From NCBI GenBank assembly GCA_035559815.1, contig DATMAT010000057.1:6359-70358 (forward strand): 64,000 nt of DNA, given 5' to 3'. A model generated the notes under the pieces. The model saw nothing but the letters and a program-made list of their open reading frames with translations. It had not been told where the DNA came from and searched no databases. The translations under genes were made by a program, and so were the position numbers. Below, in pieces: positions 27,547-43,975 of this stretch; position 1 is the stretch's first letter; each line of letters begins with the position of its first letter. The DNA is from Thermodesulfobacteriota bacterium. GTDB taxonomy: Bacteria; Desulfobacterota_D; UBA1144; Nemesobacterales; CSP1-2.

Positions 27547-28152
27547 ATGAAATTAGAAAAAGAAGATGAAATATTGGGTGCGGTGGCGATATCCCTGATT
27601 GAAAGAAAAGGGGGAGAATGCCCTTCTGACGAGGAATTCGCCTTATACCTGGACAGAAAGTTAAACCGAGAGAGGAAAAAGACCCTCATCTCCCACTTTA
27701 TTTCCTGCCCTGCCTGCCGGGACAGACTGGCCGTCTCGAACTTGGCTCTCGAAACCGCCAGAGAGGAAAACATCCTAGAGAAATTACTGACTTTTTTCGG
27801 CCGTCCGCTGGTCATAGCGCCCGTAGCCATCGTAATACTCTTCCTGGCGGCTATAACCCTGAACGTTTATCTAAAATCGTCCAATTTTCCTGACACCGAA
27901 GAAAGATACAGGGGTGGAGATTTAGTCAGCGTAAACCAGGTTGATTTAACCCCTGGCCTCTTGAGAATTATCCAAGAGGGCGACCAGGGGGAATTAAAAA
28001 ATAACCTTGCCAAAGAGCTGCCTCCTCACTCTGAGGTATCGGATATAGTGGTGGAAGAGAGGCTTAAGTCTCTAAAGGACTTAAAGGAGAATGAGAAGAT
28101 AACCTTAATACTTTACAGCGATGGTTTATTGAAGGTGAAGCTAACCCAATAA
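27547..28152 (+). CDS. zf-HC2 anti-sigma factor, single-pass membrane protein
   Basis: 201 aa. HFISCPAC fits the H-x3-C-x2-C motif. TM helix LVIAPVAIVILFLAAITLNVYL, then an extracytoplasmic tail. Confidence 0.65.
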   Translation: MKLEKEDEILGAVAISLIERKGGECPSDEEFALYLDRKLNRERKKTLISHFISCPACRDRLAVSNLALETAREENILEKLLTFFGRPLVIAPVAIVILFLAAITLNVYLKSSNFPDTEERYRGGDLVSVNQVDLTPGLLRIIQEGDQGELKNNLAKELPPHSEVSDIVVEERLKSLKDLKENEKITLILYSDGLLKVKLTQ

Positions 28153-28154
28153 AC

Positions 28155-28946
28155 TCATAGCGTTTGTTCAAATATCTCCTTGATATCGTCGTTGGTTATC
28201 CCCTTTTCTCTCATGTATTTCCCCAGGCTCTTCAGTATCTTTTCTATTCTTTTGTACACCTTTTTCTGGTCAAGCCCGGGAATAGCCCCGGATATCTCCC
28301 TTGCGCTCAAATCTTGCTCGAAATAGAGCTGTAGTATCAGAATATCCTCCTCTTCGAGCCTGTGAACCTCCTCCCTGAGCACTTTCAACACCATCTCCTT
28401 TTTCTCTTTGGCCTCGGTGGTTATCAGACTCTCCTCCGGATTTGCCCCCCTACCCTCGGAGGCAATACCATCTACCTGTTCCCCGAGAAAAACGGTTCGC
28501 TTTTCATCGATCTCATCCATATTCACCCTACTCTCCCTTATCCTTTTTTCCACTTCATCAACCCTTATTTGAGCCTCCTCCGGGGGGATTTTAAACTCCG
28601 CTTGAATGGAATTCTCTACCCAGCCGGGAGACAAATTGTGATAAAAGAAGAGTTTAAAAACATGACGGTTTATCTCGTCGAACGCCCAGTAATACTTGGG
28701 TAAGACCTTATATCCGAATTGACTTCTCCTAAAATCAATGATGAGCTTCCCGGTAACGCTCTGGAGAAATGTCTTAAAGCTCGCCTCCCCGCGGAAGGAG
28801 CCTATCCTCCGGCTATTATCCTCATGTAGCTTCTCCCACACGTACAGGAAACAATCATTGGCCAGGTCGGGGTTGTTAGAAAAGCTCCTTCTACACATAG
28901 ACCGAACTACCAGTATGTCCTCATCAGTTAAGGTCCTATTATCCAT
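28155..28946 (-). CDS. Sigma-70-family ECF-like sigma factor, unusually long (263 aa)
   Basis: Region-2-like FLYVWEKL...FRGEASFKTFLQSVTGKLIIDFRR and region-4-like ILILQLYFEQDLSAREISGAIPGLDQKKVYKRIEKILKSL, separated by ~120 aa that include an acidic linker. Confidence 0.65.
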   Translation of the reverse strand: MDNRTLTDEDILVVRSMCRRSFSNNPDLANDCFLYVWEKLHEDNSRRIGSFRGEASFKTFLQSVTGKLIIDFRRSQFGYKVLPKYYWAFDEINRHVFKLFFYHNLSPGWVENSIQAEFKIPPEEAQIRVDEVEKRIRESRVNMDEIDEKRTVFLGEQVDGIASEGRGANPEESLITTEAKEKKEMVLKVLREEVHRLEEEDILILQLYFEQDLSAREISGAIPGLDQKKVYKRIEKILKSLGKYMREKGITNDDIKEIFEQTL

Positions 28947-29121
28947 TTTATGGTCGGGAAAAAGTAGCTATCTACGGGGTTAATCTGCTAATTCGCTGAT
29001 TAAAAGCCGGGGCTGGAAGCTTATCAATCCTCCATCTGATAATCTCGGCCAAATTCGCAGACCACCATCCGTCCTCGATTTTGAAAAAGATTTTAATACC
29101 ATACGGTCGTAATTAAAAGGG

Positions 29122-29146
29122 GGAATTTTCTCAAGCTTTTCGTCTA
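29122..29146 (+). promoter_or_regulatory. ECF-sigma-type promoter motif, copy d
   Basis: GGAATTTTCTCAAGCTTTTCGTCTATA with a 15-nt spacer. Ends 101 nt upstream of the LuxR-type gene GTG. Confidence 0.5.
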
Positions 29147-29247
29147 TATTCGAACAAGAGAACGAGGAATAAAGGTTATTAAAACCGGATGGATTCAGAC
29201 ATGATTAAAAACCCGAATTTCCATTTTAGCATGAAAAAGGAGGTACC

Positions 29248-29886
29248 GTGGTGAGAGAATCGAATAATCCGATACAAATAGCCTTAGCATCGCGCTCCCA
29301 GTTTTTTCTCCAAGGAATAAAAAGGATTCTCCAGGATGAGGGCGACATAAAGATAGTTGCCGAGGTTATCGATTCAAAAGAGGTCAAGAAATGTATTAAA
29401 GAGATAAAACCGGACTTTATATTTATCGACAATAGAACCCCGGAGTTTAGCATCCAGGATCAACTGAATTCCTTGATTAATAAAAATTGCACTACCCGGT
29501 TTATCTTATTCGACACCTATAGGGGGGAAAAACATTTTTCACGAAACATCGTATATATAAGCAGGGAAGCAGGCTCCAAAGAATTAATCGAGAGCGTGAG
29601 AAAAAACAGCCGGAGTAATGAAGGTGCTCAAGACAGGAAAGATTACTCGGGCCATGACAAAAATAGGCTTACAAACAGGGAAGCAGACATAGTTAATTTA
29701 ATCAAAATCGGCATGAGCAACAAAAGAATTGCTCAAAGACTCTCCATAAGGGAAAAAACGGTGAAGGCAAACCTGACCAATATTTTTACGAAACTACAGG
29801 TCCAAAGCAGGTACCAGCTCCTAGTGCGGGCCAGGCAGCAAGGCCCTAATAATTCTTCAGAACATGAATTTTCAAAAACCGGCTAA
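29248..29886 (+). CDS. LuxR/NarL-type regulator with an atypical (pseudo-)receiver domain
   Basis: 212 aa. C-terminal HTH LTNREADIVNLIKIGMSNKRIAQRLSIREKTVKANLTNIFTKL. The receiver-like N-terminus has IALASRS where the acidic DD pair normally sits, and retains FIFIDN. Confidence 0.7.
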   Translation: MVRESNNPIQIALASRSQFFLQGIKRILQDEGDIKIVAEVIDSKEVKKCIKEIKPDFIFIDNRTPEFSIQDQLNSLINKNCTTRFILFDTYRGEKHFSRNIVYISREAGSKELIESVRKNSRSNEGAQDRKDYSGHDKNRLTNREADIVNLIKIGMSNKRIAQRLSIREKTVKANLTNIFTKLQVQSRYQLLVRARQQGPNNSSEHEFSKTG

Positions 29887-29903
29887 GGATAGGAGGCTTT
29901 TCC

Positions 29904-30344
29904 ATGGCTACAGCTCAAAACCTGGAAAGGAACGGCGCAACAGCGGATATAAAAGCAATATGCAGGTGGATACAAAAAAAGCTGGGCGTAAGCCAGCCTG
30001 AAACACTCATAGTACCCATATATAACCACATAAACGAATACAGCCCAAGGTACATCGCCAGACGCCTCGCCGAAAAAGACACCAAGCTGAGGGTATTTTT
30101 CCACTTTAAGGACATGAACGATTACATCACCCTTTCGAGTAATGGGCAATTAAATGTGAGAGACGGGCAAGAAGAGTTGTTCAAGGCCTGGGGAATCTCT
30201 CAATTCAGAGACCTTAACCCTCAAACCATCTTCCAGGAGCTTGAGGGCAGAATAAGAAAAATAAACGTTATATCCTTCTCCGATTATATGAATCATTCCT
30301 TTAACTCCTACTCCGACTTTATAGAGTGGCTGTCTGAAGGGTAG
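29904..30344 (+). CDS. Hypothetical protein, likely co-transcribed with the LuxR-type gene
   Basis: 146 aa. GGAGG Shine-Dalgarno and a 17-nt gap after the upstream stop. No recognisable domain. Confidence 0.4.
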   Translation: MATAQNLERNGATADIKAICRWIQKKLGVSQPETLIVPIYNHINEYSPRYIARRLAEKDTKLRVFFHFKDMNDYITLSSNGQLNVRDGQEELFKAWGISQFRDLNPQTIFQELEGRIRKINVISFSDYMNHSFNSYSDFIEWLSEG

Positions 30345-30399
30345 ATTCAAGTAGCGATTATGTTTCATCCCTCTACTCAATATTTTCATCAGAAGACAG

Positions 30400-30700
30400 G
30401 ATTAGTTCTAAGAATGAAGCACCCCGCGGCAAGCCGCAGTGTATCAATACATACGCATGTACTCTAACGCGACATTGCGAGAGTTGCGATGCAATATGTT
30501 TAGATTCCTCACGTTTGTTCGGAATGACAAAAGCGGTTTTGCAGTCTCGGAAACGCAAATAGGGTTCTGTCATTTCGAAGGGAGAAATCTTAGTTTTTGG
30601 GAAACCTTTTGTCACATTGCTTCGTCGCGGAGTCTATCCTGAGGAAATCGAAGGACTCCTCGCAATCAGCGGAAACTCTGTGGCAAGCCACAGCGAATTC
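30400..30700. repeat. MITE-like repeat tract
   Basis: Contains AGATTCCTCACGTTTGTTCGGAATGAC, GTCATTTCGAAGGG and TTGCTTCGTCGCGG...CGAAGGACTCCTCGCAAT (compare 18170-18235), plus small hairpins GCGGCAAGCCGC and TGTGGCAAGCCACA. Confidence 0.5.
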
Positions 30701-30720
30701 TCAAGTTAAATTCATCAGAG

Positions 30721-30746
30721 GGAAATATCCATGAACTTTTCGTCTA
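30721..30746 (+). promoter_or_regulatory. ECF-sigma-type promoter motif, copy e (orphan)
   Basis: GGAAATATCCATGAACTTTTCGTCTAGT. No credible ORF for ~720 nt downstream. Confidence 0.4.
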
Positions 30747-30951
30747 GTACTTACGTAAGACAGGGATGATAAATCAGAACTAAGGCAACTACATACTCTC
30801 CAAACCTCCTGGCCGGCGCCGTTCCTCGCCCCATCGAACACGGCGCTGGCTGGCTAAGAAAGCTTGAAGTACCGGACAGTCAAATATGCTTTAATCTCGT
30901 CTTAAAGGTGGTTAATTATCCTCGCTCCCGGGTCAAGATGTTTTTATTAGC

Positions 30952-31335
30952 TTGGCCTGAAGGTAATGAAAGTACTTCAATGACGGAATAGGAAAAAGCA
31001 ACCCCTCTTTAATTCTCGTCTCAATAAGCCTGTCCTAAGCCCAGTCGAAAGGGCTATATCAAGCACGGTCGAAGGGTTGAAGTATGTCGATTTTGTCATT
31101 CCGAGTCTTGTCCCGAACTAACGTGAGGGAGCTTGCCAGGAATCTTAAGTAATAGCTTACTTATCTTCCTAACCAATACCTTAAGATTTCTCACGTTCGT
31201 TCGAAATGACATCCTCACTCTTTAATCCCACCTATAGACCCGCCCTGAGCATGCTCGAAGGGGCTGCCCTTAGGAGTCAAATTAGGGGAGAATACAAGGG
31301 GGTAAGAGGTTATTTAACAAATAGGTTCAGGACCG
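30952..31335. repeat. Second copy of the 16734-type element, split by a ~267-bp nested insertion
   Basis: Left half 30952-31017 and right half 31285-31335 align with 16734-16866. The hairpin loop is replaced by 31018-31284, which itself contains a GTCATTCCGAG...CGAAATGAC element at 31095-31210. Confidence 0.55.
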
Positions 31336-31472
31336 GTCAGGGCTGAAAATGGCAGGGTAAGAAATGATCCCTCCGAATAACAAATTACCCAAGCTCAGGA
31401 GCTTCACCAAAGATTGAAATTTCCGATTACCAATGTAATTTTCTAGGGGTAAACTCGCTGGGTAAGCACTTA

Positions 31473-33086
31473 ATGAAATTTGACTACGAAAAACTCTGCC
31501 GCTCTTGGAAATGGCAAATACCCAAATACTACAATATAGGGCGTGACTGTACCGACAAACATGTCAGGACAGAATCGCACCGGAATAAAATCGCACTATA
31601 CTGGGAGGATGAAGAGGGAGAAACCAGGAGATTCACGTTTACCGACCTTTCGGTTATTACCAACAAGATAGGAAATGCCCTACTTTCTCTCGGGTTCCAA
31701 AAAGGCGACCGTCTCCTTATTCGACTACCGAACCTTCCTGAATTTCCCCTGGTTTTTCTGGGGGCGATAAAAATTGGCGCAGTCCCCATTCCCACAAGCT
31801 CGATGCTTACTGCCGAAGAGATCGGTTTTCTGCTGGACGACAGCGGAGCTAGATGTATTGTTACCACTTCAGGGTTATACGAAGCGGTGGAAGAGAATCG
31901 AGGCCGGCATGAACGTTTCAGAGACGTTCTTATCGTGGGCCGACCCACACCTTCGGGTTGCATAGATTTAAACGAATTAATAAGGAAGAGTCCAGAAGGA
32001 TTGGATGTCCCGGAGACAAAAGCGGATGACGTAGCCTATATTTGTTATACATCCGGGACGACCGGGTTTCCAAAGGGTGTCGTTCATGCGCAACGGGCAC
32101 TGATCGGGCGCGACCCTTCCGCTCTTTACTGGCAGGCCTTGAAACCGCACTATACGGTCATGCATGCCGGAAAATTAAACTGGACTTACACCCTGGGCAC
32201 GGGATGCCTTGACCCATGGCGGCACGGTTGCTCCACGGTGATCTATGGAGGAGAGCACAACCCCAAAAAATTTTTTGAGCTAATAGCCAAGTACAGGGTT
32301 AACGTATTTATGGCCGTGCCTAGTGTTTATAGGCAGATGCTTCGCACCGCAGACGAGGTTAGTCCCGACCTTGCCAGTCTTCATCACGCCCTTAGCGCCG
32401 GAGAGCACCTGAGCGAAGAACTCTTTCACTCATGGGAAAGCAAACTAGGGGTAGAACTCTACGATGGCCTGGGCATGAGCGAGTTCAGTTACTATCTCTC
32501 AAACATGCCGGGTATGCCGATAAAACCGGGGTCTCCAGGAAAGCCGCAGCCGGGGCACCGCTCTACCCTCGTTGACCAGTACGGCCATGAGGTCGGCATT
32601 GGAGAGAGCGGGGTTCTAGCTACTCCGAAGAATGACCCCGGAATAATGCTTCGATACTGGCAGCGTCCGGAGGAAACCGAGAAGATGTTTCTAGGTGAAT
32701 GGTTTGTAAGCGGGGATTACTTTTACAAGGACGAGGACGGCTACTTCTGGCTTGTGGGAAGAGAAGACGACATAATCACCACATTTGGGTATAGGGTTTC
32801 GCCATTCGAGGTAGAGAGGGTTTTAGGTGAACATCCAATAGTCCATGAATGCGCGGTGACCGGTATCGATGTCGGAGAAGATAAAACAATTACAACGGCT
32901 TTTGTAGTGCTTAAAGAAACCATGCCGGAAATGGAAAAGCTAAAAGAAGAGCTTTTAGACTACACTCTTAAACGTCTTGCCAGATACAAATGTCCCCGGG
33001 AAATAATCTTCCTTGAATCACTTCCTAAGACCGCAAATGGGAAGATTAAGCGCCGTGCACTTAGAGAAACATACAATACTTTCTAA
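31473..33086 (+). CDS. AMP-forming acyl-CoA synthetase
   Basis: 537 aa. YTSGTTGFPKGVVH, GDYFYKDEDGYFWLVGREDD and LPKTANGKIKRRAL. Confidence 0.85.
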   Translation: MKFDYEKLCRSWKWQIPKYYNIGRDCTDKHVRTESHRNKIALYWEDEEGETRRFTFTDLSVITNKIGNALLSLGFQKGDRLLIRLPNLPEFPLVFLGAIKIGAVPIPTSSMLTAEEIGFLLDDSGARCIVTTSGLYEAVEENRGRHERFRDVLIVGRPTPSGCIDLNELIRKSPEGLDVPETKADDVAYICYTSGTTGFPKGVVHAQRALIGRDPSALYWQALKPHYTVMHAGKLNWTYTLGTGCLDPWRHGCSTVIYGGEHNPKKFFELIAKYRVNVFMAVPSVYRQMLRTADEVSPDLASLHHALSAGEHLSEELFHSWESKLGVELYDGLGMSEFSYYLSNMPGMPIKPGSPGKPQPGHRSTLVDQYGHEVGIGESGVLATPKNDPGIMLRYWQRPEETEKMFLGEWFVSGDYFYKDEDGYFWLVGREDDIITTFGYRVSPFEVERVLGEHPIVHECAVTGIDVGEDKTITTAFVVLKETMPEMEKLKEELLDYTLKRLARYKCPREIIFLESLPKTANGKIKRRALRETYNTF

Positions 33087-33120
33087 GTGTGTTATCTACA
33101 CTATTAACAGTCAAACCTGT

Positions 33121-33146
33121 AGTTGGGCTATGATCGTAGCCCAACT
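33121..33146. terminator. 10-bp-stem hairpin between convergent genes
   Basis: AGTTGGGCTA-tgatcg-TAGCCCAACT, between the acyl-CoA synthetase stop (33086) and the P9 stop (33180). Confidence 0.4.
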
Positions 33147-33179
33147 TGAGCTGGCTATAAATTTTCCGCGATATTTAAG

Positions 33180-33536
33180 TTATTGGCAAAACTTATCTAC
33201 CGTACAAATATCATAGGTATCACAGAAAGGCCCCCATGAAAACGGCCAGCAATCCGTCACCGGGGAACATTTCTTTGCACACCTACCGCTGCTACACTGA
33301 TTATTACTCTCGCACCGGCTCCCTCTGGGGAGATTACTACCGGAGGGTGGTGGGGGTTGGTCAGCACCTCCGTTCCCCACAGGCCTACTAAAAAGCCACT
33401 GAAGGAGTTGGTCCAAAAATTGCGGACTAACCACATCTCCCGGCAATAGTGAACGTGAGGATCTCTGTTGGTAGTAACCTCTTGTTTTATATAGCGATAC
33501 CTCCGCTGTAAACCCTGGAAGTGTAGATATTCTCAT
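33180..33536 (-). CDS. Leader-bearing Cys-rich protein P9 (118 aa)
   Basis: AAGGAGG Shine-Dalgarno. N-terminus MRISTLPGFTAEVSLYKTRGYY. C-terminal 8-Cys region CESNNQCSSGRCAKKCSPVTDCWPFSWGPFCDTYDICTVDKFC. Confidence 0.7.
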   Translation of the reverse strand: MRISTLPGFTAEVSLYKTRGYYQQRSSRSLLPGDVVSPQFLDQLLQWLFSRPVGNGGADQPPPPSGSNLPRGSRCESNNQCSSGRCAKKCSPVTDCWPFSWGPFCDTYDICTVDKFCQ

Positions 33537-33620
33537 CTTGGTTGCCTCCTTTTAGCCTAGATTTAACTTCGGCCGTCCTAATAATGCCATATTAGCAGCT
33601 AAGATTGCAAATTGATGACC

Positions 33621-34094
33621 CTAAACAAAACAGATGCCCCCATATCCGGGTAGCGTCACAGTGGAACAGGACGCACCGACAAAGGGAATCGGAACACAAA
33701 TTCTATTTCTGCAGAGGCAGGGAGTAGTAGAGAAAAATGTCATAATTGCAGTTCCGGCGATCTGTCCCGATACGCTCGATGTGCGTGCTATAGCGCCCGG
33801 CATATATGCAATCAAGTTACGATCACATTGGCAATCAAGATATCCGCGGCGACCGTAGCAGAGGTCATGTTCCCTACATACTGCATCGACTGCGTCTATG
33901 GGCGGTGTATTTCCGGTTGGATCACCGAATCCGGGCCCGCAGTAATTGCCGTAAACCGGGACGCTGAGTTGTTGCGGCAATACCGGATCTTGTTTGGAGC
34001 GTAGGTTTATCTTTACGCCTTTATTGTCAATGCCGTAACGCTTTATTTGCCTGCCTAAGCTGGCCTCCGCTTTAAATCCTGGCACCTTGTTCAT
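33621..34094 (-). CDS. Leader-bearing protein P8 with a phospholipase-A2-like domain (157 aa)
   Basis: AAAGGAG Shine-Dalgarno. N-terminus MNKVPGFKAEASLGRQ. YCGPGFGD, then about 17 aa, then CREHDLCY, which is the secreted-PLA2 Ca-loop and His-Asp motif arrangement. Confidence 0.7.
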   Translation of the reverse strand: MNKVPGFKAEASLGRQIKRYGIDNKGVKINLRSKQDPVLPQQLSVPVYGNYCGPGFGDPTGNTPPIDAVDAVCREHDLCYGRRGYLDCQCDRNLIAYMPGAIARTSSVSGQIAGTAIMTFFSTTPCLCRNRICVPIPFVGASCSTVTLPGYGGICFV

Positions 34095-34118
34095 TTCATT
34101 CAACTCCTTTTTTTGTAT

Positions 34119-34925
34119 TCACCGGTCGTAGTAAGGTGACATCTTTGTAACCAAGAACGGAAACTCCGACCACAAAAGCGCAATGGCACCTGTTACAAAT
34201 GGGGCTGCAGCACTAGTTTCTCCAAATGTGAGCGACTTGCCATTAGCCCCGAGGCTGGTAATGTTGTCGCCGGGAGCGCTTAGACCTCGCTTTCCGATAG
34301 AACTTCCTAGGTTCGAGTAGTTAATCGGTCTACCTTGAAGGTCGCAGGCAACAACCGGAATAACCCACGTGTGACCGGTAACGGCAGAACTTCCGATAGT
34401 CCCCTGATTCCCAGCCGCCGCAACAACAATAACACCACCCCTTGCAGCATAATCTAGAGCCTTTTCTAATTCGCGCTCACCTTTAGATGATGGTTGTGCA
34501 AGTGCAGCGCTTAGGTTTATTACACGCGCACCTGCATCAATGGTCTCTATGATTGCCCCTGCAAGCTCCTCTGGGGTTGCGCTTGGCAGGGATTTAGCGG
34601 GCTCACCCCAGGTCTGTCTGTTTCCCGATGCCCTCTCTGAAAAAATGGGACGTACAAGCAGTGTGCAATCAGGACAGATTGCCGGAGCTAGAGAACCCCT
34701 CCTACCGCACAAGATGCCTGCCACAAACGTCCCATGCATACAGGCAGCACTGCTTGCTACGGTGTATGTCCCATCCAGTTTTCCAGGAACCTCGCGGATA
34801 TTTTCACCTGTAAGGCTGGGATGGTTAATTATGATGGGGCCATCTATTAACCCAACTGTAATTTCGGGTCTACCGCTTGTGAGTTCCATCAATGCTGTGA
34901 GCTTGACCACATCCAAAGGATTCAT
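34119..34925 (-). CDS. Subtilisin S8 peptidase, second copy, C-terminally truncated and fused to the tail of the PatG-DUF-like gene (possibly decaying)
   Basis: 268 aa, highly similar by eye to the peptidase at 41599-42495 up to LLWSEFP. It then ends FLVTKMSPYYDR, identical to the last 12 aa of the protein at 40062-41006. GLIDGP, HGTFVAG and AAAGNQG are kept, but the Ser motif reads GETSAAAP (Gly to Glu). No obvious Shine-Dalgarno. Confidence 0.65.
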   Translation of the reverse strand: MNPLDVVKLTALMELTSGRPEITVGLIDGPIIINHPSLTGENIREVPGKLDGTYTVASSAACMHGTFVAGILCGRRGSLAPAICPDCTLLVRPIFSERASGNRQTWGEPAKSLPSATPEELAGAIIETIDAGARVINLSAALAQPSSKGERELEKALDYAARGGVIVVAAAGNQGTIGSSAVTGHTWVIPVVACDLQGRPINYSNLGSSIGKRGLSAPGDNITSLGANGKSLTFGETSAAAPFVTGAIALLWSEFPFLVTKMSPYYDR

Positions 34926-35001
34926 AGTTTCATCTATGAATCCTTGTTTAACCGAAAATTCCCATTTTAAATAAACTTGTTTATATCTAAGCCTTTCCTA
35001 G

Positions 35002-35283
35002 TGCCATTGTCTTACAAAGAATAGGTTATTGTCAAGGAAAATTTTTTCTCCCTACTTTACTTCTGAGGAAGATGAAAATTACGTAGATACTGTAAAATTT
35101 TTGAGAATGTAGAAAGAGGTGAGTTAAAAGCTATAACAAGCAAAGTCCCCGACTTCACTCAGATAGCTGTAGGAGTTTTGAGGAAGGTGAGAACTTTTCT
35201 TACAAACGATCTGGATTTCAAGGAAATAGAGAGCATAAGAGTTATACAATTAAGTAACTTTAAAACGGTCAAGCAACCTTAAA
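35002..35283 (+). pseudogene. Degraded PIN-domain (VapC-like) remnant
   Basis: Open frame without a start codon reads ...ERGELKAITSKVPDFTQIAVGVLRKVRTFLTNDLDF. The PIN-like ending KEIESIRVIQL is only reached after a 1-nt shift in an A-run near 35220. The N-terminal catalytic region is absent. Confidence 0.3.
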
Positions 35284-35512
35284 TGTCTTTCCGATAAGAA
35301 CGAGTCCTTCTAACTCTTCTCTCTCAAGCTTTCTTCTAATCTCGTCAAATTTCCTTACAGTATCGGGTGCGTAGAATCTCTTACCACATTTTAGACATAC
35401 CTCAAGCCATAACCCTAAGAACTGCCGTGTTAGTTCCACCTCATAGGAGCTTATCAACTTCCTTTTCGACGATTTCCCCTCCACACACAGGACATTTATC
35501 AAATAGCTTCAT
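35269..35512 (-). pseudogene. YgiT-type zinc-finger (MqsA-like antitoxin) gene with an internal frameshift
   Basis: ATG at 35512 overlaps the upstream stop as ATGA and encodes MKLFDKCPVCGGEIVEKEVDKLL, then stops at 35441-35443. The second zinc knuckle (EVCLKCGKRFYAPDTVRKFDEI) continues in another frame, which is the listed ORF 35269-35502. Confidence 0.5.
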
Positions 35513-35847
35513 CCCTTTGTTAAAACCTCAATAATATTTTTCATATTCTCAAATACTTCTTCTACCGATGGCTCTTCACACGGCACATGCTTTCCTGCCT
35601 CCCCAAAGGGATGATAGTGCCATCCCTTCAGATTATCAATTCCATAAATCCTCTCGTTCTTATGTATCAGTGCAAAATCTTTCCTTTCAGTCTCACAGTT
35701 AGCATAAATGTCTATCAGTAAATCTTGTTGAAAAGTAATTCGAACATATAGGTGAGTATTTCGAACTATATTGTATTGAAGCGTAACTAGAGGGAAGAAT
35801 TTCTTAGAGGCGTTATTTATCTCTTCTAAGAAGCGATTTAAATCCAA
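35509..35847 (-). CDS. DUF6516/TumE-like putative toxin
   Basis: 112 aa. RIYGIDNLKGWHYHPFGEAGKH resembles the DN..H.HP...H core I associate with TumE-family proteins. Translationally coupled to the zinc-finger gene. Confidence 0.4.
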   Translation of the reverse strand: MDLNRFLEEINNASKKFFPLVTLQYNIVRNTHLYVRITFQQDLLIDIYANCETERKDFALIHKNERIYGIDNLKGWHYHPFGEAGKHVPCEEPSVEEVFENMKNIIEVLTKG

Positions 35848-35859
35848 AAAGGCACCTTT

Positions 35860-36189
35860 CTACTCTAGGTTTTTAAGTAGTTCAAGCCATTTTTTCTTCT
35901 CAGCCTCTAATCCTTCCCAGACCATGTAATGCCTCTCTACCCGATGAGAGTACTTGTTCTCTATTTCTCCTCTCTCCCAGGCATCTGCAAATTCATTAAA
36001 GGTGCTCCCATATTTTACCTCAAACTTGTAAATTTCCTCTTCACATTCCCGGAGACGCCTAGCCAGATCAGACTTTATCAATTTGAGTATTTTTTCTCCC
36101 GGTGTATCTCCTTCAACATAATCGAAAAATTCGAGTATCTCTTTAGATAGGTCTAACGTAGGCATCTTATTTTCCTTATTTTGACTCAA
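35860..36189 (-). CDS. Hypothetical small helical protein in the TA islet
   Basis: 109 aa, 12 nt upstream of the TumE-like gene. No recognisable domain. Confidence 0.35.
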   Translation of the reverse strand: MSQNKENKMPTLDLSKEILEFFDYVEGDTPGEKILKLIKSDLARRLRECEEEIYKFEVKYGSTFNEFADAWERGEIENKYSHRVERHYMVWEGLEAEKKKWLELLKNLE

Positions 36190-36245
36190 TTAACTACACA
36201 GATTCTACCTTCCTATAATGACAAATGTCAAAAAACTAACTCCAT

Positions 36246-36539
36246 CTAGTGTTCTTCTCGTTCTGCGACAAAGTCCGCCTGTGGTGAGCAAAGTCGAACC
36301 ACTGTCAGCGAGCCAGGAATCTTCGAGAGAGCTTTCCTCACCGCCTCGAGGCTTATGCTCTCATCCACCTCGGCGGCATAGAGTTGCAAGCATTCGACAA
36401 CTAGCCATTCCTCCTCCGAAGGGATTGCTGGCAACTTAGACACGATTAAGGTGACGCGCTCGTGCTCACGGAGGTCAAGCGGTTCCAGCAGACGTAATAC
36501 ACCATTCTCATAAACCGCTTCAAGCCTTTTACTCATCAC
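36246..36539 (-). CDS. DUF104 (AF2212-like) antitoxin-family protein
   Basis: 97 aa. N-terminal LEAVYENGVLRLLEPLDLREHERVTLIV is the typical DUF104 motif. Confidence 0.5.
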   Translation of the reverse strand: MMSKRLEAVYENGVLRLLEPLDLREHERVTLIVSKLPAIPSEEEWLVVECLQLYAAEVDESISLEAVRKALSKIPGSLTVVRLCSPQADFVAEREEH

Positions 36540-36681
36540 GTACCTCTTTTACCCAAGACTTGTCCTGGCGTCTACTTCTTTTATCCCTCTAAGCCGTGCC
36601 CTAAGGCGACATCTTGGCGACTAGGAATAAGAACTTCTCAGCTAGATCTTAAATAACCACCTCTTCTCTCTGCAGTTGATC

Positions 36682-36930
36682 TCAGAAACAGATCCAACGG
36701 CAGTATCCACCCCAATGAGGCAGGCACACCCGGACGCATGAGGGCTCCACAATAGGCCACCGAAGCAAGTCTGGCCTAAAGAACTGTGTATCTGTGAAGA
36801 GCAATTGCGCTGGATATATGGTTACGTTAGCTTGGTTCAGAAGAGTGATCATCTGGTAATGTTCACTTGTCTTATAGAGTGATACTTCTGCGGTGAATCC
36901 CGGCATCTTCATCTGGTTCATTTTATTCAT
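36682..36930 (-). CDS. Leader-bearing Cys-rich peptide P7 (~82 aa; start uncertain, 36930 or 36921)
   Basis: N-terminus MNKMNQMKMPGFTAEVSLYKTSEHYQ. Putative core after IYPAQ is LLFTDTQFFRPDLLRWPIVEPSCVRVCLPHWGGYCRWICF (4 Cys). Confidence 0.7.
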   Translation of the reverse strand: MNKMNQMKMPGFTAEVSLYKTSEHYQMITLLNQANVTIYPAQLLFTDTQFFRPDLLRWPIVEPSCVRVCLPHWGGYCRWICF

Positions 36931-37029
36931 CCCCACTTCAACAAAATTTTTTGACCTCACTTCCGCTAGGAGATATGTCGTTGCACTTAGTAAATCGTTT
37001 TTCACCCTCCTTAATCAGAGAGCGAAGAG

Positions 37030-37995
37030 TCAGACCGGGATACAACGCCCCGAATCGAAGAGGCAAGTCCAACCAGGTGGACAGCCACTGTTGCCACAAC
37101 ACGACCAACCCGGCGGAGCACACTTTGTGCCATTAGCACAGCAGGAGTGACCAGGCGGGCAGCAACCCCGCCCGCAACACACAGGAGCCCACGACGGACA
37201 GCAATGGTCGCCACAACACCGCTCACCAGATACGCAGCAGCGGTTGCCACAAGTCTGACCCGCCGGGCAACAACCACCGCCGGTGCATACTTCTCCTGGC
37301 CCACAGCAGTGATTGTTACAGACTCGACTAGGTGGACAGCAGCCCTCGATGGTGCACTGCTCTCCCGGAGCACAGCGACGGTTATTGCAGACTCGATCTG
37401 CAGGAGCACAGCCGTCCAGGGTGCACACTTCTTCCGGCGCACAACAACGCTCGTTGCAGACTCGATCTTTAGGGCAGAAGCCGTCCCTAGTGCACTGCTG
37501 CCCATCTGGCACATAACAACCGAAACCGAAGCAGCATCGTTGACCTGGCGGACAGCAGCTTAATGTATATCCGGTTGCCGTTTCATTAAGGATGTGGCAG
37601 CATTCATGGTCTCCCGGGCAACATTCCGGACGCTTTCCGATGCGCCCGCACAACTTCATTTCAGGTGGACAGAGAGGAGGAATGAACTCGCATTGGACCA
37701 AGCACTGTACTCTGCATTCATCACGCAGAATCGCGATTGGAACATCCGGATTATCAATGCGTCCAGCTTTGACGCAGGCACCTACGCAGCGATCAACACA
37801 GGGTTTTTTATGGCAATATTCCATGCACTGATGGTCAGGGTGGCCAGCCCTGAGGCAATCGTCCATACAACGATTCACACCGTTGTATGCCGGGTATATA
37901 GTCTCATTCACTTGGCTAGAAGTCCCAATAGTATAGTAGTGCCCGCTCGTTTTATAGAGTGACCCTTCTGCGGTAAATCCTGGTATCTTGTTCAT
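37030..37995 (-). CDS. Leader-bearing giant Cys-rich repeat protein P6 (321 aa)
   Basis: N-terminus MNKIPGFTAEGSLYKTSGHYY. About 58 Cys by my count, with CCPPG..CC motifs. Three tandem 23-aa units RVCN..CCAPEEVCT.DGCAPAD are also visible as repeated TTGCAGACTCGATCT at nucleotide level. Confidence 0.75.
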   Translation of the reverse strand: MNKIPGFTAEGSLYKTSGHYYTIGTSSQVNETIYPAYNGVNRCMDDCLRAGHPDHQCMEYCHKKPCVDRCVGACVKAGRIDNPDVPIAILRDECRVQCLVQCEFIPPLCPPEMKLCGRIGKRPECCPGDHECCHILNETATGYTLSCCPPGQRCCFGFGCYVPDGQQCTRDGFCPKDRVCNERCCAPEEVCTLDGCAPADRVCNNRRCAPGEQCTIEGCCPPSRVCNNHCCGPGEVCTGGGCCPAGQTCGNRCCVSGERCCGDHCCPSWAPVCCGRGCCPPGHSCCANGTKCAPPGWSCCGNSGCPPGWTCLFDSGRCIPV

Positions 37996-38064
37996 TTAAT
38001 TCGCCCCTAATTTCAATCATAATATGTCGTGCCTAATCACGGCCTTCACCCGGGTGCATAAGGT

Positions 38065-38388
38065 CTAAGTTCGAGTAGGGCTGCATCCTTTGAGGCATTC
38101 TCGATAATTCTCATCGCAGATAATACAGTGGGTAGATCCCTTCGGGTTTTCAGGCGTGCCTTCACAACCCTCCAAACACAGGACCCAGGCTATATAGCAA
38201 AGACCTCTACAAAGCGAACGCCCGATCCCGCCAAAAAGCCCAGAACCGGGCGATACAGGTAATGGATTAATAGTCAGTTGAGAAATAACTCTTTGCCCAC
38301 AGTTGCTATAAGCTTGCATCGCTATAGACTGGTACTGCTCACTCGTCTTATAAACCGATGCCTCTGCTGTGAATCCCGGTGTTTTCAT
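38065..38388 (-). CDS. Leader-bearing Cys-rich protein P5 (107 aa)
   Basis: N-terminus MKTPGFTAEASVYKTSEQYQ. C-terminal region LCRGLCYIAWVLCLEGCEG...HCIICDENYRECLKGC. Confidence 0.7.
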   Translation of the reverse strand: MKTPGFTAEASVYKTSEQYQSIAMQAYSNCGQRVISQLTINPLPVSPGSGLFGGIGRSLCRGLCYIAWVLCLEGCEGTPENPKGSTHCIICDENYRECLKGCSPTRT

Positions 38389-38441
38389 TTCATCAACCCC
38401 CATTTATTTCAGATTATCCCTACAGCAGCCGACCTAAACCC

Positions 38442-38693
38442 TTAGGCCATTCCCCCGCCACCACAGACCCCAAAGCACGCACCGCACGTCAAAAAATCTC
38501 CTGGGTCTGGCACAGGCGACATAACAAGGAAAGCCGCACAGGCTAGGCAAGCGGTCATGCAAAACCTGCTTCTGAACATCGCCGGAACGATCCCACTTTC
38601 TTTCATATCCGAACTATAAGAAACCGTATATCGTCCAGTAGACCTGTATACAGAGGTTTCTGCAGTAAATCCAGGCAAATTCATTTTACTCAT
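38442..38693 (-). CDS. Leader-bearing Cys-rich peptide P4 (83 aa)
   Basis: GGAGGTG Shine-Dalgarno. N-terminus MSKMNLPGFTAETSVYRSTGRY. Hydrophobic Cys/Gly-rich core FCMTACLACAAFLVMSPVPDPGDFLTCGACFGVCGGGGMA. Confidence 0.7.
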   Translation of the reverse strand: MSKMNLPGFTAETSVYRSTGRYTVSYSSDMKESGIVPAMFRSRFCMTACLACAAFLVMSPVPDPGDFLTCGACFGVCGGGGMA

Positions 38694-38748
38694 TTTATTC
38701 ACCTCCTTCACACATTGTTCAAAACCGAGATGAGTGCAGTAATCGGTC

Positions 38749-39126
38749 TTACCAGCCGAACCCGACACCTAGCTCGGTGTCGCAGGTCGTATCTGGCACG
38801 TCCCATTCACCCCAAATATTAAACCAAGTGTTTTTACACCGGTCTGGAGGCCGACCTTCAAGACCCGGAGTCGTTCGACAAGCTTCTTCCCACGATACGC
38901 CCCAAGGGATACCCCACAATATGGCTGAAAACTGTCGCCGTCCGCAGCCTGACCCTTCCGTCCACCAACAGCCGCGCTTAGTACAGTGATCTCTCTTGAA
39001 GCTACCCCAGGTCTGGGCCGGCACAAGGCGTCCCATTTCCGTCGGCATGTACTGAAAACCCGCTCGATACTGATGGCTCCCGCGATATAGCGAAGCCTTT
39101 GCGGTAAATCCAGGTATTTTGTTCAT
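38749..39126 (-). CDS. Leader-bearing Trp/Cys-rich protein P3 (125 aa)
   Basis: GGAGGTG Shine-Dalgarno. N-terminus MNKIPGFTAKASLYRGSHQY. The core has 6 Cys and many Trp (GCWWTEGSGC...ILWGIPWGVSWEEAC...NTWFNIWGEWD). Confidence 0.7.
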   Translation of the reverse strand: MNKIPGFTAKASLYRGSHQYRAGFQYMPTEMGRLVPAQTWGSFKRDHCTKRGCWWTEGSGCGRRQFSAILWGIPWGVSWEEACRTTPGLEGRPPDRCKNTWFNIWGEWDVPDTTCDTELGVGFGW

Positions 39127-39177
39127 TTCATTCACCTCCTTTTTTCACTCCCTCACCAGACCCTAGAGACCGAACAC

Positions 39178-39588
39178 TCAGATCAGGGTGCAGAAAGAAG
39201 GACTACATCCTATGAAGGGTGCACATATTCTCCTGCACTTTGTCCCCGCCGGACAACAGCCCTCGTTATTACAGCAGGACGTACCGGGCGGGCAACAACC
39301 ACGAGCACAGCAAGGATGACCAGGGGGACAAGAGTGGGTGCCGCAGTTGGGTCGAGGTGGAGGAGGTGGGGGTGGAGTACAAGATACTTCTTTACAAATA
39401 GGTCCTCCTGTTTCTGGGTCATATCCAAAGCAACAGGTCTTCTGCCCATTTTCACATGGCGTGCACCCTTTAATCTGTTGTAGTACTAAGCCGCTAACTG
39501 ACTTGCTAGTCCAAGTCGATTCAAGCGCATAAATCCCAGCCGTCCTGTAGAGCGAAGCCTCTGCGGCAAATCCCGGCATTTTGCTCAT
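39178..39588 (-). CDS. Leader-bearing Cys/Pro-rich protein P2 (136 aa)
   Basis: GGAGGTG Shine-Dalgarno. N-terminus MSKMPGFAAEASLYRTAGIY. The core has a poly-Pro tract PPPPPPPRP and CCPPGTSCCNNEGCCPAGTKC repeats similar to P6. Confidence 0.7.
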   Translation of the reverse strand: MSKMPGFAAEASLYRTAGIYALESTWTSKSVSGLVLQQIKGCTPCENGQKTCCFGYDPETGGPICKEVSCTPPPPPPPRPNCGTHSCPPGHPCCARGCCPPGTSCCNNEGCCPAGTKCRRICAPFIGCSPSFCTLI

Positions 39589-39657
39589 TTGACTCACCTC
39601 CTTTCTCTTTTTCCTCCGTCCGTATAGAATTCACCTGATAAACCGCCGCGGTCTCAA

Positions 39658-40026
39658 CTAGTCAATCGCTACCAAGCTGTCAACACAGTCACGCCACGGC
39701 TCACTTGCCGGCACCCAACCCCAATAGCAGCCAGGCGGTTCAGGACAGATCTTTGCATACTTAAACCATTGGCATATCCGGCACTCGGTTTGAAAAGTCA
39801 GACCCCAAAATTTCCATGTGCTGGTCGTTTTATCCCAGCACAATTTTTTCATCGTAAACACTACGCCCGGCATTGATGTTGGCACGTCAACGGTAGATAG
39901 TGTGCCCATCAGTCCCTGGGTAAGAACCAACGCACCTACTCTCACGCCTGCACGATTCGGGGCTACTGCATAGCTCATGGCTGATTTGTAGAGCGAGACC
40001 TCTGCTGTAAACTCAGGCAATTTCAT
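39658..40026 (-). CDS. Leader-bearing Trp/Cys-rich protein P1 (122 aa)
   Basis: GGAGGTGA Shine-Dalgarno. N-terminus MKLPEFTAEVSLYKSAMSY. Core LCWDKTTSTWKFWGLTFQTECRICQWFKYAKICPEPPGCYWGWVP...DC. Confidence 0.7.
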   Translation of the reverse strand: MKLPEFTAEVSLYKSAMSYAVAPNRAGVRVGALVLTQGLMGTLSTVDVPTSMPGVVFTMKKLCWDKTTSTWKFWGLTFQTECRICQWFKYAKICPEPPGCYWGWVPASEPWRDCVDSLVAID

Positions 40027-40061
40027 TTCCTTCACCTCCATTCAATTGAATCCGGTCGACC

Positions 40062-41006
40062 TCACCGATCATAATACGGCGACATCTTTGTAACCAGGAA
40101 CGGAAACTCCTCGGTCACATCCACACGGGTAAAGAACTTCTCGGTAACGTCCGTCTGACGATTGGTGAAGGAGAAAATGACATCTACAACCTTGCGTGTG
40201 CCGCTGAGAGGCGAATGACGAACTTCTACCGCTGTCAAAGAAGAGTTTTGAGCAAAAGCCTCCGCAGCTTTAGCATAGATGGCGTTGTATCGTACTGCCA
40301 GATAGTTTAAAGCACGGTGGTCGTCAGTGGCTCCGGCATTGTCAGCTATCTGCATTATCCTCATGAATAGCTCCTCTGCTGCTGGGGTGAACTCCTTTGC
40401 TGACATCTTTTCCGGCTTAGGAATAGATTTGATTAGAGAATCGATATCGAATGAATACATCTGGTCGAACACAACAATAGGCACCATGAGTCCATTGCAC
40501 ATCTCTGGCGGGGCGATTGGCCCTCTCATGCCAATAACCACATCAACATCAGTGGGGCGTGGAGCGGGACGTAAGGCCTCCACTAACATATCCAGGTCCG
40601 CAGGGTCGCGCGGCACCAGAATGTATGTCTCCAAACCCTCAATGGTTAAAACCCAGCACATCTGTCTCACCAGGTAGCGGTTCTGTCTATGGGTCAGAAC
40701 CTTGTGGAGTGCCTCTCGGTCGGTAAGCCCGGCTGTCTTTTCCCGCCCTGTAACTTGGGCGAATTCCTTCTCCACAGCTAAACGAGGAAAGCGGGCCTCG
40801 ACCCTGCCCAGGGCATAAACGAAGCTGGGTGTAACTCCGCCATTTGACCCGGTGGAGCTTCCGCATGTAGGACACCCTCCCCCTCCAGCTTGGGTGGGAA
40901 GAATAGTTCCAGTACGACTTTCAGAAGAGGATACTACTGTTGGTGAGTCTTTCACGTTAACGGCTTGCTCTCCCATCTGTTCCTTCGATTCAACATTTTC
41001 TTCCAT
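40062..41006 (-). CDS. Protein resembling the C-terminal DUF of cyanobactin proteases PatA/PatG (PatG_C/PatG_D-like)
   Basis: 314 aa from the ATG preceded by AAGGAGGAG. FVYALGRVEARFPRLAVEKEF, CWVLTIEGLETYILVP, LMVPIVVFDQMYSF, DHRALNYLAVRYNAIY and FTRVDVTEEFPFLV follow the motif order I recall for the PatG DUF (VYALG..GYDFG.EARRD.F ... DRALNF ... DVS..PV). Recalled from memory, not verified. Confidence 0.5.
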   Translation of the reverse strand: MEENVESKEQMGEQAVNVKDSPTVVSSSESRTGTILPTQAGGGGCPTCGSSTGSNGGVTPSFVYALGRVEARFPRLAVEKEFAQVTGREKTAGLTDREALHKVLTHRQNRYLVRQMCWVLTIEGLETYILVPRDPADLDMLVEALRPAPRPTDVDVVIGMRGPIAPPEMCNGLMVPIVVFDQMYSFDIDSLIKSIPKPEKMSAKEFTPAAEELFMRIMQIADNAGATDDHRALNYLAVRYNAIYAKAAEAFAQNSSLTAVEVRHSPLSGTRKVVDVIFSFTNRQTDVTEKFFTRVDVTEEFPFLVTKMSPYYDR

Positions 41007-41199
41007 GATATTTCTCCTCCTTTCAGGATAGATTTCAAAGGCTTCATAATTAGCCACAAAGACTCAAAGGAAATTGTTAACGAGTTAGCTTACGCCTTTT
41101 GTCGTGTTAGCGAGTTTGCGTGTTATTTTTCTAGCTCGTAAACCAGCAAACACGTTAACCCGCAAACATTGTTTCTTTGTGCCTTGGTGGTTTATATTT

Positions 41200-41418
41200 T
41201 TATCTCGAACGCCTGCCAGAGAAAACCAGCCAACCGTTGAGTGTGGAGGCGCGACGTTCACATCCGCCACACGGTTTAATCCCAATAGTAGACGTGACTC
41301 GCTTAATCGCATCACCCAGTCCAATTTCCTCATCGCTAATGAAACCAGGAAGACGAACCCGGTAAGGCTGTCCTTTAGTCTTACTTCTTTGACCATTTCT
41401 TGTTTCTTCCTTTTTCAT
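41200..41418 (-). CDS. Small basic protein with an LPGF motif and a C-x-x-C pair (72 aa)
   Basis: AGGTGA Shine-Dalgarno. MKKEETRNGQRSKTKGQPYRVRLPGFISDEEIGLGDAIKRVTSTIGIKPCGGCERRASTLNGW. Lies between the S8 and DUF genes. Confidence 0.4.
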   Translation of the reverse strand: MKKEETRNGQRSKTKGQPYRVRLPGFISDEEIGLGDAIKRVTSTIGIKPCGGCERRASTLNGWLVFSGRRSR

Positions 41419-41450
41419 GACATTCACCTATGTTACGCAAATATACATTA

Positions 41451-41477
41451 TAGGGGGACGCTGCAGCGTGCCCCTAC
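41451..41477. repeat. GTAG...CTAC-type palindrome copy (TAGGGGGACGCTGCAGCGTGCCCCTAC)
   Basis: Read directly. Imperfect relative of the palindromes at 22129 and 53393. Confidence 0.6.
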
Positions 41478-41496
41478 CTAAGTTGAACGCACAACT

Positions 41497-41569
41497 GTCA
41501 TTCCCGCACGCTTATGGATACCCCACAGCTCCCCGATAACTACATTCGGGGACAGGATTCGGGTATGAC
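41497..41569. repeat. MITE-like element (GTCATTCCCGC...ATGGATACCCC...ACATTCGGGGAC...GGGTATGAC)
   Basis: Same family as 15686-15802 and 45647-45716. Inserted between the S8 gene and the small ORF. Confidence 0.6.
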
Positions 41570-41598
41570 AATGTAAAAAAGCGAATAACGTGAGATAT

Positions 41599-42495
41599 TC
41601 ACCTCCTTAAACCAGACCTTATAATCTGATACGCCCCCCATGCATCAAGCAAGGGTGGAACTACCGTATTTCTCCTTCGCCCGTTCGACCGTGTAATCAC
41701 GACTTTCATATCAGCACCGGTAGCTTTTGGGAACTCTGACCAAAGCAGCGCAATAGCCCCCGTCACAAAGGGAGCCGCAGCGCTCGTTCCGCTGAACGTG
41801 AGTGGTTTGCCATCGGCTCCGAGGCTAGTAATGTTGTCGCCGGGGGCGCTCAGACCTCGTCTCCCTATCGAATTTCCCAGATTGGAGTAACTAATCGGTC
41901 TACCCTGAAGGTCACAGGCAACGACCGGGATAACCCAAGGGTGACGGGTGATAACAGTGCTACCAACTGCTCCCTGATTTCCCGCCGCTGCTACAATCAA
42001 AACGCCTCTCTTTGATGCATAATTCAAAGCCCCTACTAACTCTCGTTCACCTGTGGAAGATAGCTGCGCCATAGCTGCACTCAGGTTTATCACGTGCGCT
42101 CCCGCATCAATGGTCTCGATTAATGCCGCTGCTAGTTCATCGGGAGTGGTACTGGGCATGGGCTCTAGATGCTGGCTGCGGCTATTTCCATTTCCTGACA
42201 TCGTCTCAGCAAAAATAGGACGCACCAACAACGTGCAATCAGGACAGATAGCCGGAGCTACAGAACCCCTCTTTCCGCACAAAATTCCTGCCACGAATGT
42301 TCCATGCAAACAGGCGACACTACTTGCCTGTGCACATGCACCCGCAAGTTTTCCAGGGACCTCACGAATGTCTCCACCTGAAAGATCCGGATGGTCTAAT
42401 AACACGGGCCCGTCAATCAGACCAACTACTATCTCTGGCCTCCCGCTGGCAATATCCATCAAAGCGGTGAGCCTGATTAAATCCAGATGATTCAT
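41599..42495 (-). CDS. Subtilisin-family S8 peptidase without a signal peptide (PatA-like)
   Basis: 298 aa from ATG 42495 (GAGGTGAGG Shine-Dalgarno). Catalytic contexts VGLIDGPVLLDHP (Asp), CLHGTFVAG (His), AAAGNQG (Asn) and FSGTSAAAPFVTG (Ser). No hydrophobic N-terminus. Confidence 0.8.
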   Translation of the reverse strand: MNHLDLIRLTALMDIASGRPEIVVGLIDGPVLLDHPDLSGGDIREVPGKLAGACAQASSVACLHGTFVAGILCGKRGSVAPAICPDCTLLVRPIFAETMSGNGNSRSQHLEPMPSTTPDELAAALIETIDAGAHVINLSAAMAQLSSTGERELVGALNYASKRGVLIVAAAGNQGAVGSTVITRHPWVIPVVACDLQGRPISYSNLGNSIGRRGLSAPGDNITSLGADGKPLTFSGTSAAAPFVTGAIALLWSEFPKATGADMKVVITRSNGRRRNTVVPPLLDAWGAYQIIRSGLRR

Positions 42496-42683
42496 GCGTG
42501 GATTCCTCACCTCAACCCAGTGATAGGAGTTAAAAACTAGATAAAGACTAAAGGAGAACGAGTACTTACAGTTAATCTTTCAAGTGAGCAGAAATAAACA
42601 ACCGGCGGTTATCGTTAATAACCTGATGTTGTGGACAGAAGTTGCTTAGGCTCTTTATAGTTATTGCTCTCCCTCTCAGGGTG

Positions 42684-43896: not shown

Positions 43897-43975
43897 CATC
43901 ATAAGACATACAGAACAGGAGTGAACGAGGTTTTAATTTGTGATAATTCGTGTTCATTCGTGGCTAAATAGTCAT

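Follow-up and report, generated by a model that had tools for sequence, protein, structure and literature searches.

A probable composite of three toxin–antitoxin loci in the spacer between two tandem peptidase S8/PatG-domain clusters of a Thermodesulfobacteriota bacterium

What has collected in the spacer between two tandem gene clusters of a Thermodesulfobacteriota bacterium, and is all of it decaying? The window analysed here is a stretch of 64,000 nucleotides (nt) of that genome (GenBank assembly GCA_035559815.1, contig DATMAT010000057.1, positions 6,359 to 70,358; window coordinates are used below), in which a small islet of genes separates the precursor gene P7 from a chimeric peptidase S8 gene (S8b). 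The initial annotation had listed five elements in this islet – a DUF104-type antitoxin gene, a small helical open reading frame (ORF), a TumE/DUF6516-like gene, a YgiT-type zinc-finger gene and a start-less PIN remnant – and all five are recovered where it had placed them, both in the ORF listing and by translation. It is probable that three type II toxin–antitoxin (TA) loci, unrelated to one another, have piled up between the two S8/PatG-domain clusters and make up the islet: an orphan antitoxin gene, an imported operon of the TumA/TumE type, and an old vapC pseudogene. TA genes often accumulate and erode at recombination-prone junctions, and the islet itself is ordinary; its interest lies in a stacking and erosion of TA genes, between clusters resembling those for ribosomally synthesized and post-translationally modified peptides (RiPPs), that can be mapped to single bases, and in two ORFs previously regarded as hypothetical, helical and TumE-like, that form a conserved and selected pair across phyla and are missed by current profile libraries.

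Three pieces in one spacer

The ORF listing, three-frame translation and the boundaries of homology divide window positions 35043–36539 into three independent pieces. Counting the split frame of the zinc-finger gene, the minus strand has four ORFs; those on the plus strand (35029–35282) are broken. From about 34800 to about 36250 the G+C content (GC) is 0.34–0.41, compared with about 0.50 on either side; by piece it is 0.513 in S8b, 0.367 in the PIN fragment, 0.379 in the three-gene module and 0.527 in the DUF104 gene, and the window as a whole has 0.472. The islet looks foreign, both by its low GC (0.30–0.38, compared with 0.51–0.53 for the genes on its flanks) and by the lack of relatives of four of its five genes at related S8 loci, and neither a tRNA gene nor an Rfam family was found near it. 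Comparison contigs from other assemblies and metagenomes are labelled L001 to L102. The first of these (L001, a Logan contig from run SRR7882662) matches window positions 25509–41655 with one mismatch in 16,147 nt, at 25761, and since it is identical to the window throughout the islet region, all of the islet lesions were recovered by a second assembler.

The middle piece is a low-GC operon delimited by DNA homology. It is 90% identical to L009 and L010, with the homology extending to 35260, and 86% identical to L011, with the homology beginning at 36235, and these two limits together define a cassette of 976 bp; the three are metagenome contigs otherwise unrelated to the window, and share the cassette with it at 86–90% nucleotide identity. 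L009 and L010 are short contigs, and the truncated gene at their 5′ end can be identified as the helical partner gene because the alignment of their DNA to the window extends to 35994 and 36111, positions that lie within that gene. Neither direct nor inverted repeats were found at the flanks of the operon. We infer that the operon was acquired horizontally and carries its own promoter (Table 1), of which L011 keeps the −35 hexamer and the adjoining spacer. In the region 36202–36240 (minus strand) a palindrome, TGACAttTGTCA, overlaps this −35 hexamer and is a candidate operator for autoregulation; the L011 version is imperfect (TGACATTTGTTA).

The helical ORF had been taken for a separate element of the islet, and this is the first point on which comparison leads elsewhere. 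A homologue of 101–103 amino acids (aa) precedes the TumE-like gene in L002–L007, L008 and L011, and distant Anaerolineae have a 104-aa homologue directly upstream that is 28–34% identical to the window protein and has in common with it the motif I..FE.KYG..F.EF..AW...I.D.YS..VE.DY..WE. The partner lies directly 5′ of the TumE-like gene in all complete loci examined (L002–L008, L011 and L095–L101), separated from it by a gap of 3–12 nt or overlapping it by 4–13 nt, with partners that are 28–88% identical. As its upstream position is invariable, the helical ORF is an obligate partner of the TumE-like gene and not an element of its own. Both genes are intact. When the window is compared with L011, L009 and L002, the ratio of non-synonymous to synonymous substitution rates (dN/dS) is 0.03–0.09 for the partner and 0.10–0.19 for the TumE-like gene. 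The description of the islet as decaying thus holds for the zinc-finger and PIN genes, whereas the core pair, with these ratios (0.03–0.19), is under purifying selection. A single-sequence AlphaFold2 model of the partner has three helices, with a predicted local distance difference test (pLDDT) score of 80, and one Chloroflexi (Anaerolineae) orthologue has a precomputed match to PF27273 (MJ0235); profile searches of Pfam, NCBIfam, PHROGs and PADLOC returned nothing useful for the helical protein. This protein is the likeliest candidate for the antitoxin.

The second member of the pair is the 112-aa TumE-like protein, a putative toxin. A word-indexed search finds five homologues at 51–100% identity, none with a Pfam domain, the identical one being VNN20_14310 (MAG TPA: Thermodesulfobacteriota bacterium). 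The proteins of L002–L007 are 80% identical to that of the window, those of L011 and of L009/L010 are each 86% identical, and that of L008 is 51% identical, while an exhaustive profile search (E ≤ 1e-3) extends the family to 271 representative clusters. Its near-invariant residues (R66, G69, D71, W76, H77, H79, P80 and H87) are all kept in the window protein. In the AlphaFold2 model (pLDDT 95) six or seven antiparallel strands are preceded by a helix at the N terminus and followed by one at the C terminus, and the model has no meaningful match in PDB or among viral proteins. The published description of TumE (DUF6516; PF20126) is of an antiparallel sheet of seven strands with two helices packed against it, again with no PDB match, in a toxin that is encoded downstream of a diverse partner, targets translation, and is neutralised by that upstream partner (Durairaj et al. 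2023, PMC10584680). Compared with this description, the window protein, in the range of about 110–120 aa, is likewise predicted to be an alpha+beta protein, with two helices on an antiparallel sheet of six or seven strands, and has no PDB relative; its gene is the 3′ one of a bicistronic unit, behind a small partner specific to the family, and a few of its relatives match PF20126 faintly. There are also differences. Like almost the whole of its family of 271 clusters, the window protein scores below the Pfam model, the partner in this family is an all-helical protein of 101–104 aa (with the PF27273/MJ0235 match in Chloroflexi) and not RelB-like, and the window and L009/L010 add a third, zinc-ribbon gene coupled downstream; toxicity is putative here. 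The original TumE/DUF6516 label fails in direct Pfam and NCBIfam searches and is carried by faint family-level matches, fold and gene order. We conclude that TumE-like action is probable for the 112-aa protein, which may represent a distant branch of the TumE superfamily.

Outside the Anaerolineae and Chloroflexi the pair is patchy, and is found in TA-rich islands bearing insertion sequences (IS), together with HicB, ParE/ribbon-helix-helix (RHH) and IS605 OrfB genes. The L002 island has HicB, DUF5131 and IS605 OrfB/Cas12f-like genes, and in the intergenic gap beside its RHH/ParE pair there is an extra 83-nt fragment of a TumE-like 3′ end (L002 5499–5581, present also in L003–L005), 78% identical to window positions 35528–35610. 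Copies of the module decay in other genomes too.

The third gene of the operon is a zinc-finger pseudogene. It is coupled to the TumE-like gene by the ATGA overlap seen from the start (stop at 35509–35511, ATG at 35512–35510), and in L009 and L010 an intact 80-aa zinc-finger gene follows the TumE-like gene with a 4-nt overlap. Alignment to these two genes reveals exactly two lesions in the window copy, an AGA to TGA change at 35441–35443 (codon 24) and the insertion of a single T at 35404/35405. The CxxC motifs CPVCGG and CLKCGK are both present and do lie in different frames, as had been observed, with two lesions responsible rather than one; the frameshift, thought to be near 35440–35455, is about 40 nt away, and the nonsense codon occupies the site where it had been sought. 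When repaired, the protein scores 25.9 bits against TIGR03831 (YgiT_finger; cut-off 20.2), which bears out the YgiT-type assignment, and is below the cut-offs of the MqsA families TIGR03830 and PF15731 (21.9 against 61.8 bits, and 21.5–23.9 against 30). Its match to the MqsA families spans profile positions 1–62 only, and the 80-aa protein has no helix-turn-helix (HTH) domain. Between the repaired gene and its L009 counterpart there are 16 synonymous and 5 non-synonymous differences, and the resulting dN/dS of 0.07 outside the lesions indicates that inactivation is recent. In L011, L002–L008 and L095–L101 no zinc-finger gene follows the TumE-like gene; as it is seen only in the closest lineage (the window and L009/L010) it is an accessory third gene, and its natural knockout in the window indicates that the third component is dispensable. 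Recoding of the TGA codon was considered and rejected, since TGA is also the stop codon of the TumE-like gene.

A zinc-finger homologue with 46% identity follows a DUF4258 toxin gene in L015, from a Methanophagales archaeon. This DUF4258 toxin/YgiT zinc-finger antitoxin pair (L015 2832–3399) lies about 1.4 kb 3′ of an S8 gene, is flanked by repeated elements of about 170 nt (~2361–2804 and ~3953–4129), and is a second, independent TA module beside a member of the S8 cluster family. Fusions of DUF4258 and MqsA have been reported (PMC11980606), and together with the gene order in L015 they indicate that such zinc ribbons are normally downstream antitoxins. The window gene resembles the antitoxin genes of MqsR/MqsA and DUF4258/YgiT pairs (TIGR03831, PF15731, PF14076) in encoding both of the CxxC motifs found in the N-terminal, toxin-binding domain of MqsA, and in its position directly 3′ of a putative toxin gene to which it is translationally coupled. 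It differs from MqsA in having no C-terminal HTH, in falling below the MqsA cut-offs and in being a pseudogene here, and from both kinds of pair in that the gene upstream of it is TumE-like and not MqsR or DUF4258. By this analogy a role as second antitoxin or regulator is plausible.

The PIN remnant, correctly recognised as start-less and on the opposite strand, is 79–89% identical at the nucleotide level to an intact PIN gene on L102, a contig from a metagenome scan on which an intact AbrB/MazE-type antitoxin gene is followed by a PIN gene of 152 aa (PF01850, 63.4 bits, E 4e-17). Identity declines along the remnant, from 89% at 35043–35096 to 84% at 35097–35141 and 79% at 35142–35259. There are five lesions relative to L102, two of them end losses. 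At the 5′ end the initial ~22 codons have gone, together with the antitoxin gene upstream of them; a 7-nt insertion (35054–35060) and a 4-nt deletion (after 35096) change the frame, which had been attributed instead to a shift at the A-run near 35220; an in-frame deletion of 165 nt after 35141 takes out 55 codons; and the 3′ loss removes the last ~7 codons at a cut at 35259/35260. The remnant is thus without a start and without the first two catalytic acidic residues, the N-terminal Asp and the Glu of VVECL. Its 3′ cut coincides with the start of the cassette, which therefore abuts and truncates the PIN gene. On its own the remnant has no Pfam match and gives empty word-based homologue and PDB sequence searches, and tblastn against plasmids yields weak matches (E 4–10), mostly on PIN genes. 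It was the metagenome scan yielding L102 that settled its identity; the remnant is an old pseudogene.

The third piece is the DUF104 (AF2212-like, VapB-type) antitoxin gene, whose assignment is upheld by a match to Pfam PF01954 at 46.1 bits (gathering cut-off 21.6; E 6.5e-12) that covers only residues 2–35, or profile positions 1–34 of 59. DUF104 antitoxin genes usually sit before PIN toxin genes. Here there is no PIN ORF or other toxin gene 3′ of it on its strand, and the imported operon starts about 10 nt past its stop; tblastn finds no plasmid homologue of the protein. Its GC is host-like, and we regard it as an orphan antitoxin gene. An ATG directly after the DUF104 stop (36243–36245), about 10 nt before the imported operon, is possibly the remnant start of a lost toxin gene, which is speculation. 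The likeness to VapBC systems (PIN toxins with AbrB/MazE or AF2212-like/DUF104 antitoxins) is found twice over in the islet, in the resemblance of the plus-strand remnant to a PIN gene with an AbrB/MazE antitoxin gene before it, and in the presence of a gene from the antitoxin family usually found ahead of PIN toxins; unlike those systems, neither the remnant nor the DUF104 gene forms a pair. That the two were once partners was rejected, as they are on opposite strands and the intact relative of the remnant has an AbrB/MazE antitoxin.

Proposed workings and the alternatives weighed

These pieces suggest the following account. A DUF104 gene of resident GC would have lost its toxin partner. An operon would have been gained horizontally, of which the helical and TumE-like proteins may act as an antitoxin–toxin pair: the toxin would probably block translation, and the helical protein would bind and neutralise it and probably autoregulate the promoter. 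The zinc-ribbon gene would be a translationally coupled accessory, recently killed by the nonsense change and the 1-nt insertion, its loss tolerated because the helical partner stays. The vapC gene would have been cut at its 3′ end where the operon now starts, and would have lost its 5′ end and AbrB-type antitoxin on the S8b side.

A number of observations count against this composite account. The window TumE-like protein has no Pfam or NCBIfam match even at E ≤ 10 and no PHROG or PADLOC match. Weak PF20126 matches are found in only 3 of 107 relatives (best E 6.7e-4); three relatives with weak precomputed matches were not reproduced by a local scan, and when these three and ten more, 13 in all, were scanned one by one, none matched. 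tblastn with the TumE-like protein and two of its relatives finds no plasmid match, and a scan of viral contigs with the TumE-like alignment finds none either. No DNA-binding fold is recognisable in the helical partner. In Anaerolineae and Chloroflexi (L095–L099) the order uvrC, partner, TumE-like gene, response regulator, release factor is fixed, with overlapping gene ends, in dozens of contigs, which seems unusual for a mobile TA pair. The window assembly and the Logan contig may share one set of reads. Finally, no relative with an empty site was found, and the order of insertion is read from boundaries and GC only.

Much of this evidence would also fit the view that the helical/TumE-like pair is no TA system at all. 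It would instead be a small module of two genes with a housekeeping or regulatory task, such as a chaperone and its nucleic-acid- or metal-binding protein, lying amid TA debris by chance. The fixed neighbours, the lack of TA or defence profile matches, and the absence of relatives from the plasmids and viral contigs searched speak for such a module, but elsewhere the pair is patchy and sits in the TA-rich, IS-bearing islands described above, here it travels as a low-GC cassette of 976 bp that carries its own promoter, one lineage couples it to an MqsA-type zinc-ribbon gene, and the TumE matches among relatives, if faint, are there; we regard this reading as unlikely. Rather less probable is an arrangement in the manner of MqsR/MqsA, with the toxin gene first and the zinc finger, not the helical protein, as cognate antitoxin, in which case the toxin would now be disabled, or neutralised in trans, and the operon would be decaying. 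The ATGA coupling in the window and L009/L010 and the position of YgiT/MqsA-type zinc ribbons 3′ of toxins, in the L015 pair and in the DUF4258–MqsA fusions, would suit it; the zinc-finger gene is, however, missing from the very loci in which the helical partner is always present, and the TumE-like gene keeps all of its near-invariant residues at a dN/dS of 0.10–0.19. It seems very improbable that errors of sequencing or assembly account for the zinc-finger lesions and that the organism has an intact gene. The rest of the gene does look selected, and reads may be common to the two assemblies, but the lesions are two, independent and of different kinds, the insertion falls in a 2-nt run and not in a homopolymer, and both are exact in the Logan assembly, of which the single difference in 16,147 positions lies elsewhere.

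The composite account of three TA loci remains the one we favour. A broader proposal, for which our confidence is only tentative, is that the helical (MJ0235-like) and TumE-like proteins constitute a large unannotated sister branch of TumE–TumA (~271 clusters at 50% identity), with a dedicated antitoxin family and a new three-gene form in which an MqsA-type zinc ribbon, coupled in translation 3′ of the toxin, might be a second, dispensable neutraliser or regulator.

The flanking clusters and the seam

Table 1. Features of the islet and of the flanking clusters, in window coordinates.
Feature	Coordinates	Strand	Description	Basis
S8a (peptidase S8), cluster A	41599–42510	−		ORF/domain listing
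PatG_D/PatG_C protein, cluster A	40062–41057	−		ORF/domain listing
P7, last precursor of cluster A	36682–37005	−	PGFTAE leader	Leader repeat families D1–D4
Degenerate third copy of the PatG_C 3′ end	36604–36648	−	Encodes DLAEKFLFLVAKMSP and stop; repeat D11	70% nt identity to 40075–40121
AF2212-like/DUF104 (VapB-type) antitoxin gene	36246–36536	−	96 aa (97 aa from GTG at 36539), intact, GC 0.53	
DUF104 ORF	36246–36539	−	97 aa	ORF listing
Low-GC operon (promoter, helical partner, TumE-like gene, zinc finger)	35260–36235	−	976 bp	DNA homology, GC 0.379
Sigma-70-like promoter	36202–36231	−	TTGACA-N18-TAGAAT	11 of 12 consensus positions
Helical ORF	35860–36189	−	101 aa counted from ATG at 36165	ORF listing
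Helical partner gene, putative antitoxin (TumA-like by position)	35860–36165	−	101 aa, intact	
TumE-like gene, putative toxin	35509–35847	−	112 aa, TTG start, AAAGGTG ribosome-binding site, intact	ORF listing
YgiT-type (MqsA N-terminal-like) zinc-finger pseudogene	35269–35512	−	Split frame	Three-frame translation; alignment to intact 80-aa L009/L010 genes
PIN (vapC) pseudogene	35043–35259	+	Heavily degraded	DNA alignment to L102
S8b (peptidase S8), first gene of cluster B	34119–34925	−		Pfam S8, E 9.6e-26
PLA2-like precursor, cluster B (which also has a further ORF)	33621–34103	−		ORF listing

The precursor locus that surrounds the islet consists of two tandem clusters on the minus strand (33180–42510). 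The islet does lie between them, as was proposed, but they are not the halves of one split locus; they are tandem paralogous clusters, with S8a and S8b 73% identical at the amino acid level over residues 1–256. The last 49 nt of S8b (34119–34167) are an 88% copy of the tail of the PatG_C gene (40062–40110, repeat D8), encoding ...EFPFLVTKMSPYYDR and the stop, and since the C-terminal 12–14 residues of S8b are copied from that tail, S8b is chimeric. The third, degenerate copy of the same 3′ end (10 of 15 residues identical; tblastn E 0.005 in a 2.2-kb search space) lies between P7 and the DUF104 gene, at the upstream edge of the islet, and is a recombination scar. The junction of tail, ribosome-binding site and leader seems to be a recurrent site of recombination.

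Relatives of the S8 gene are present in more than 80 genomes, from some archaea and from bacteria of many phyla. At 80 related loci, S8 is usually followed, after about 1.35 kb, by the precursors, and leader homologues lie downstream of S8; the leader motif is found within 1.5 kb upstream of S8 in only 3 of 69 loci. In the comparison with related loci that had been suggested, relatives of the DUF104, helical, TumE-like and PIN genes are found in none of the 80, and a homologue of the zinc-finger gene in one (L015). An islet at the seam of two diverged cluster copies, beside recombination scars, fits a recombination-prone junction, and the base-level map supports the seam as a recombination site. 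The suggestion of a recombination hotspot or duplication boundary therefore has general support in the seam, the tail copies and the chimeric S8b, while the data do not give the time or order of the arrivals.

Two further features of the clusters may be mentioned. Cluster A has at least six Cys-rich precursors with the leader M(N)K(I/M)PGFTAExSLYK, and the precursors of the two RiPP-like clusters include a 321-aa Cys-repeat protein and a PLA2-like one. Upstream of S8a, also on the minus strand (42754–44869), there are genes for a luciferase-like monooxygenase (42754–43695) and a radical SAM protein (43976–44869), which may be tailoring enzymes of cluster A.

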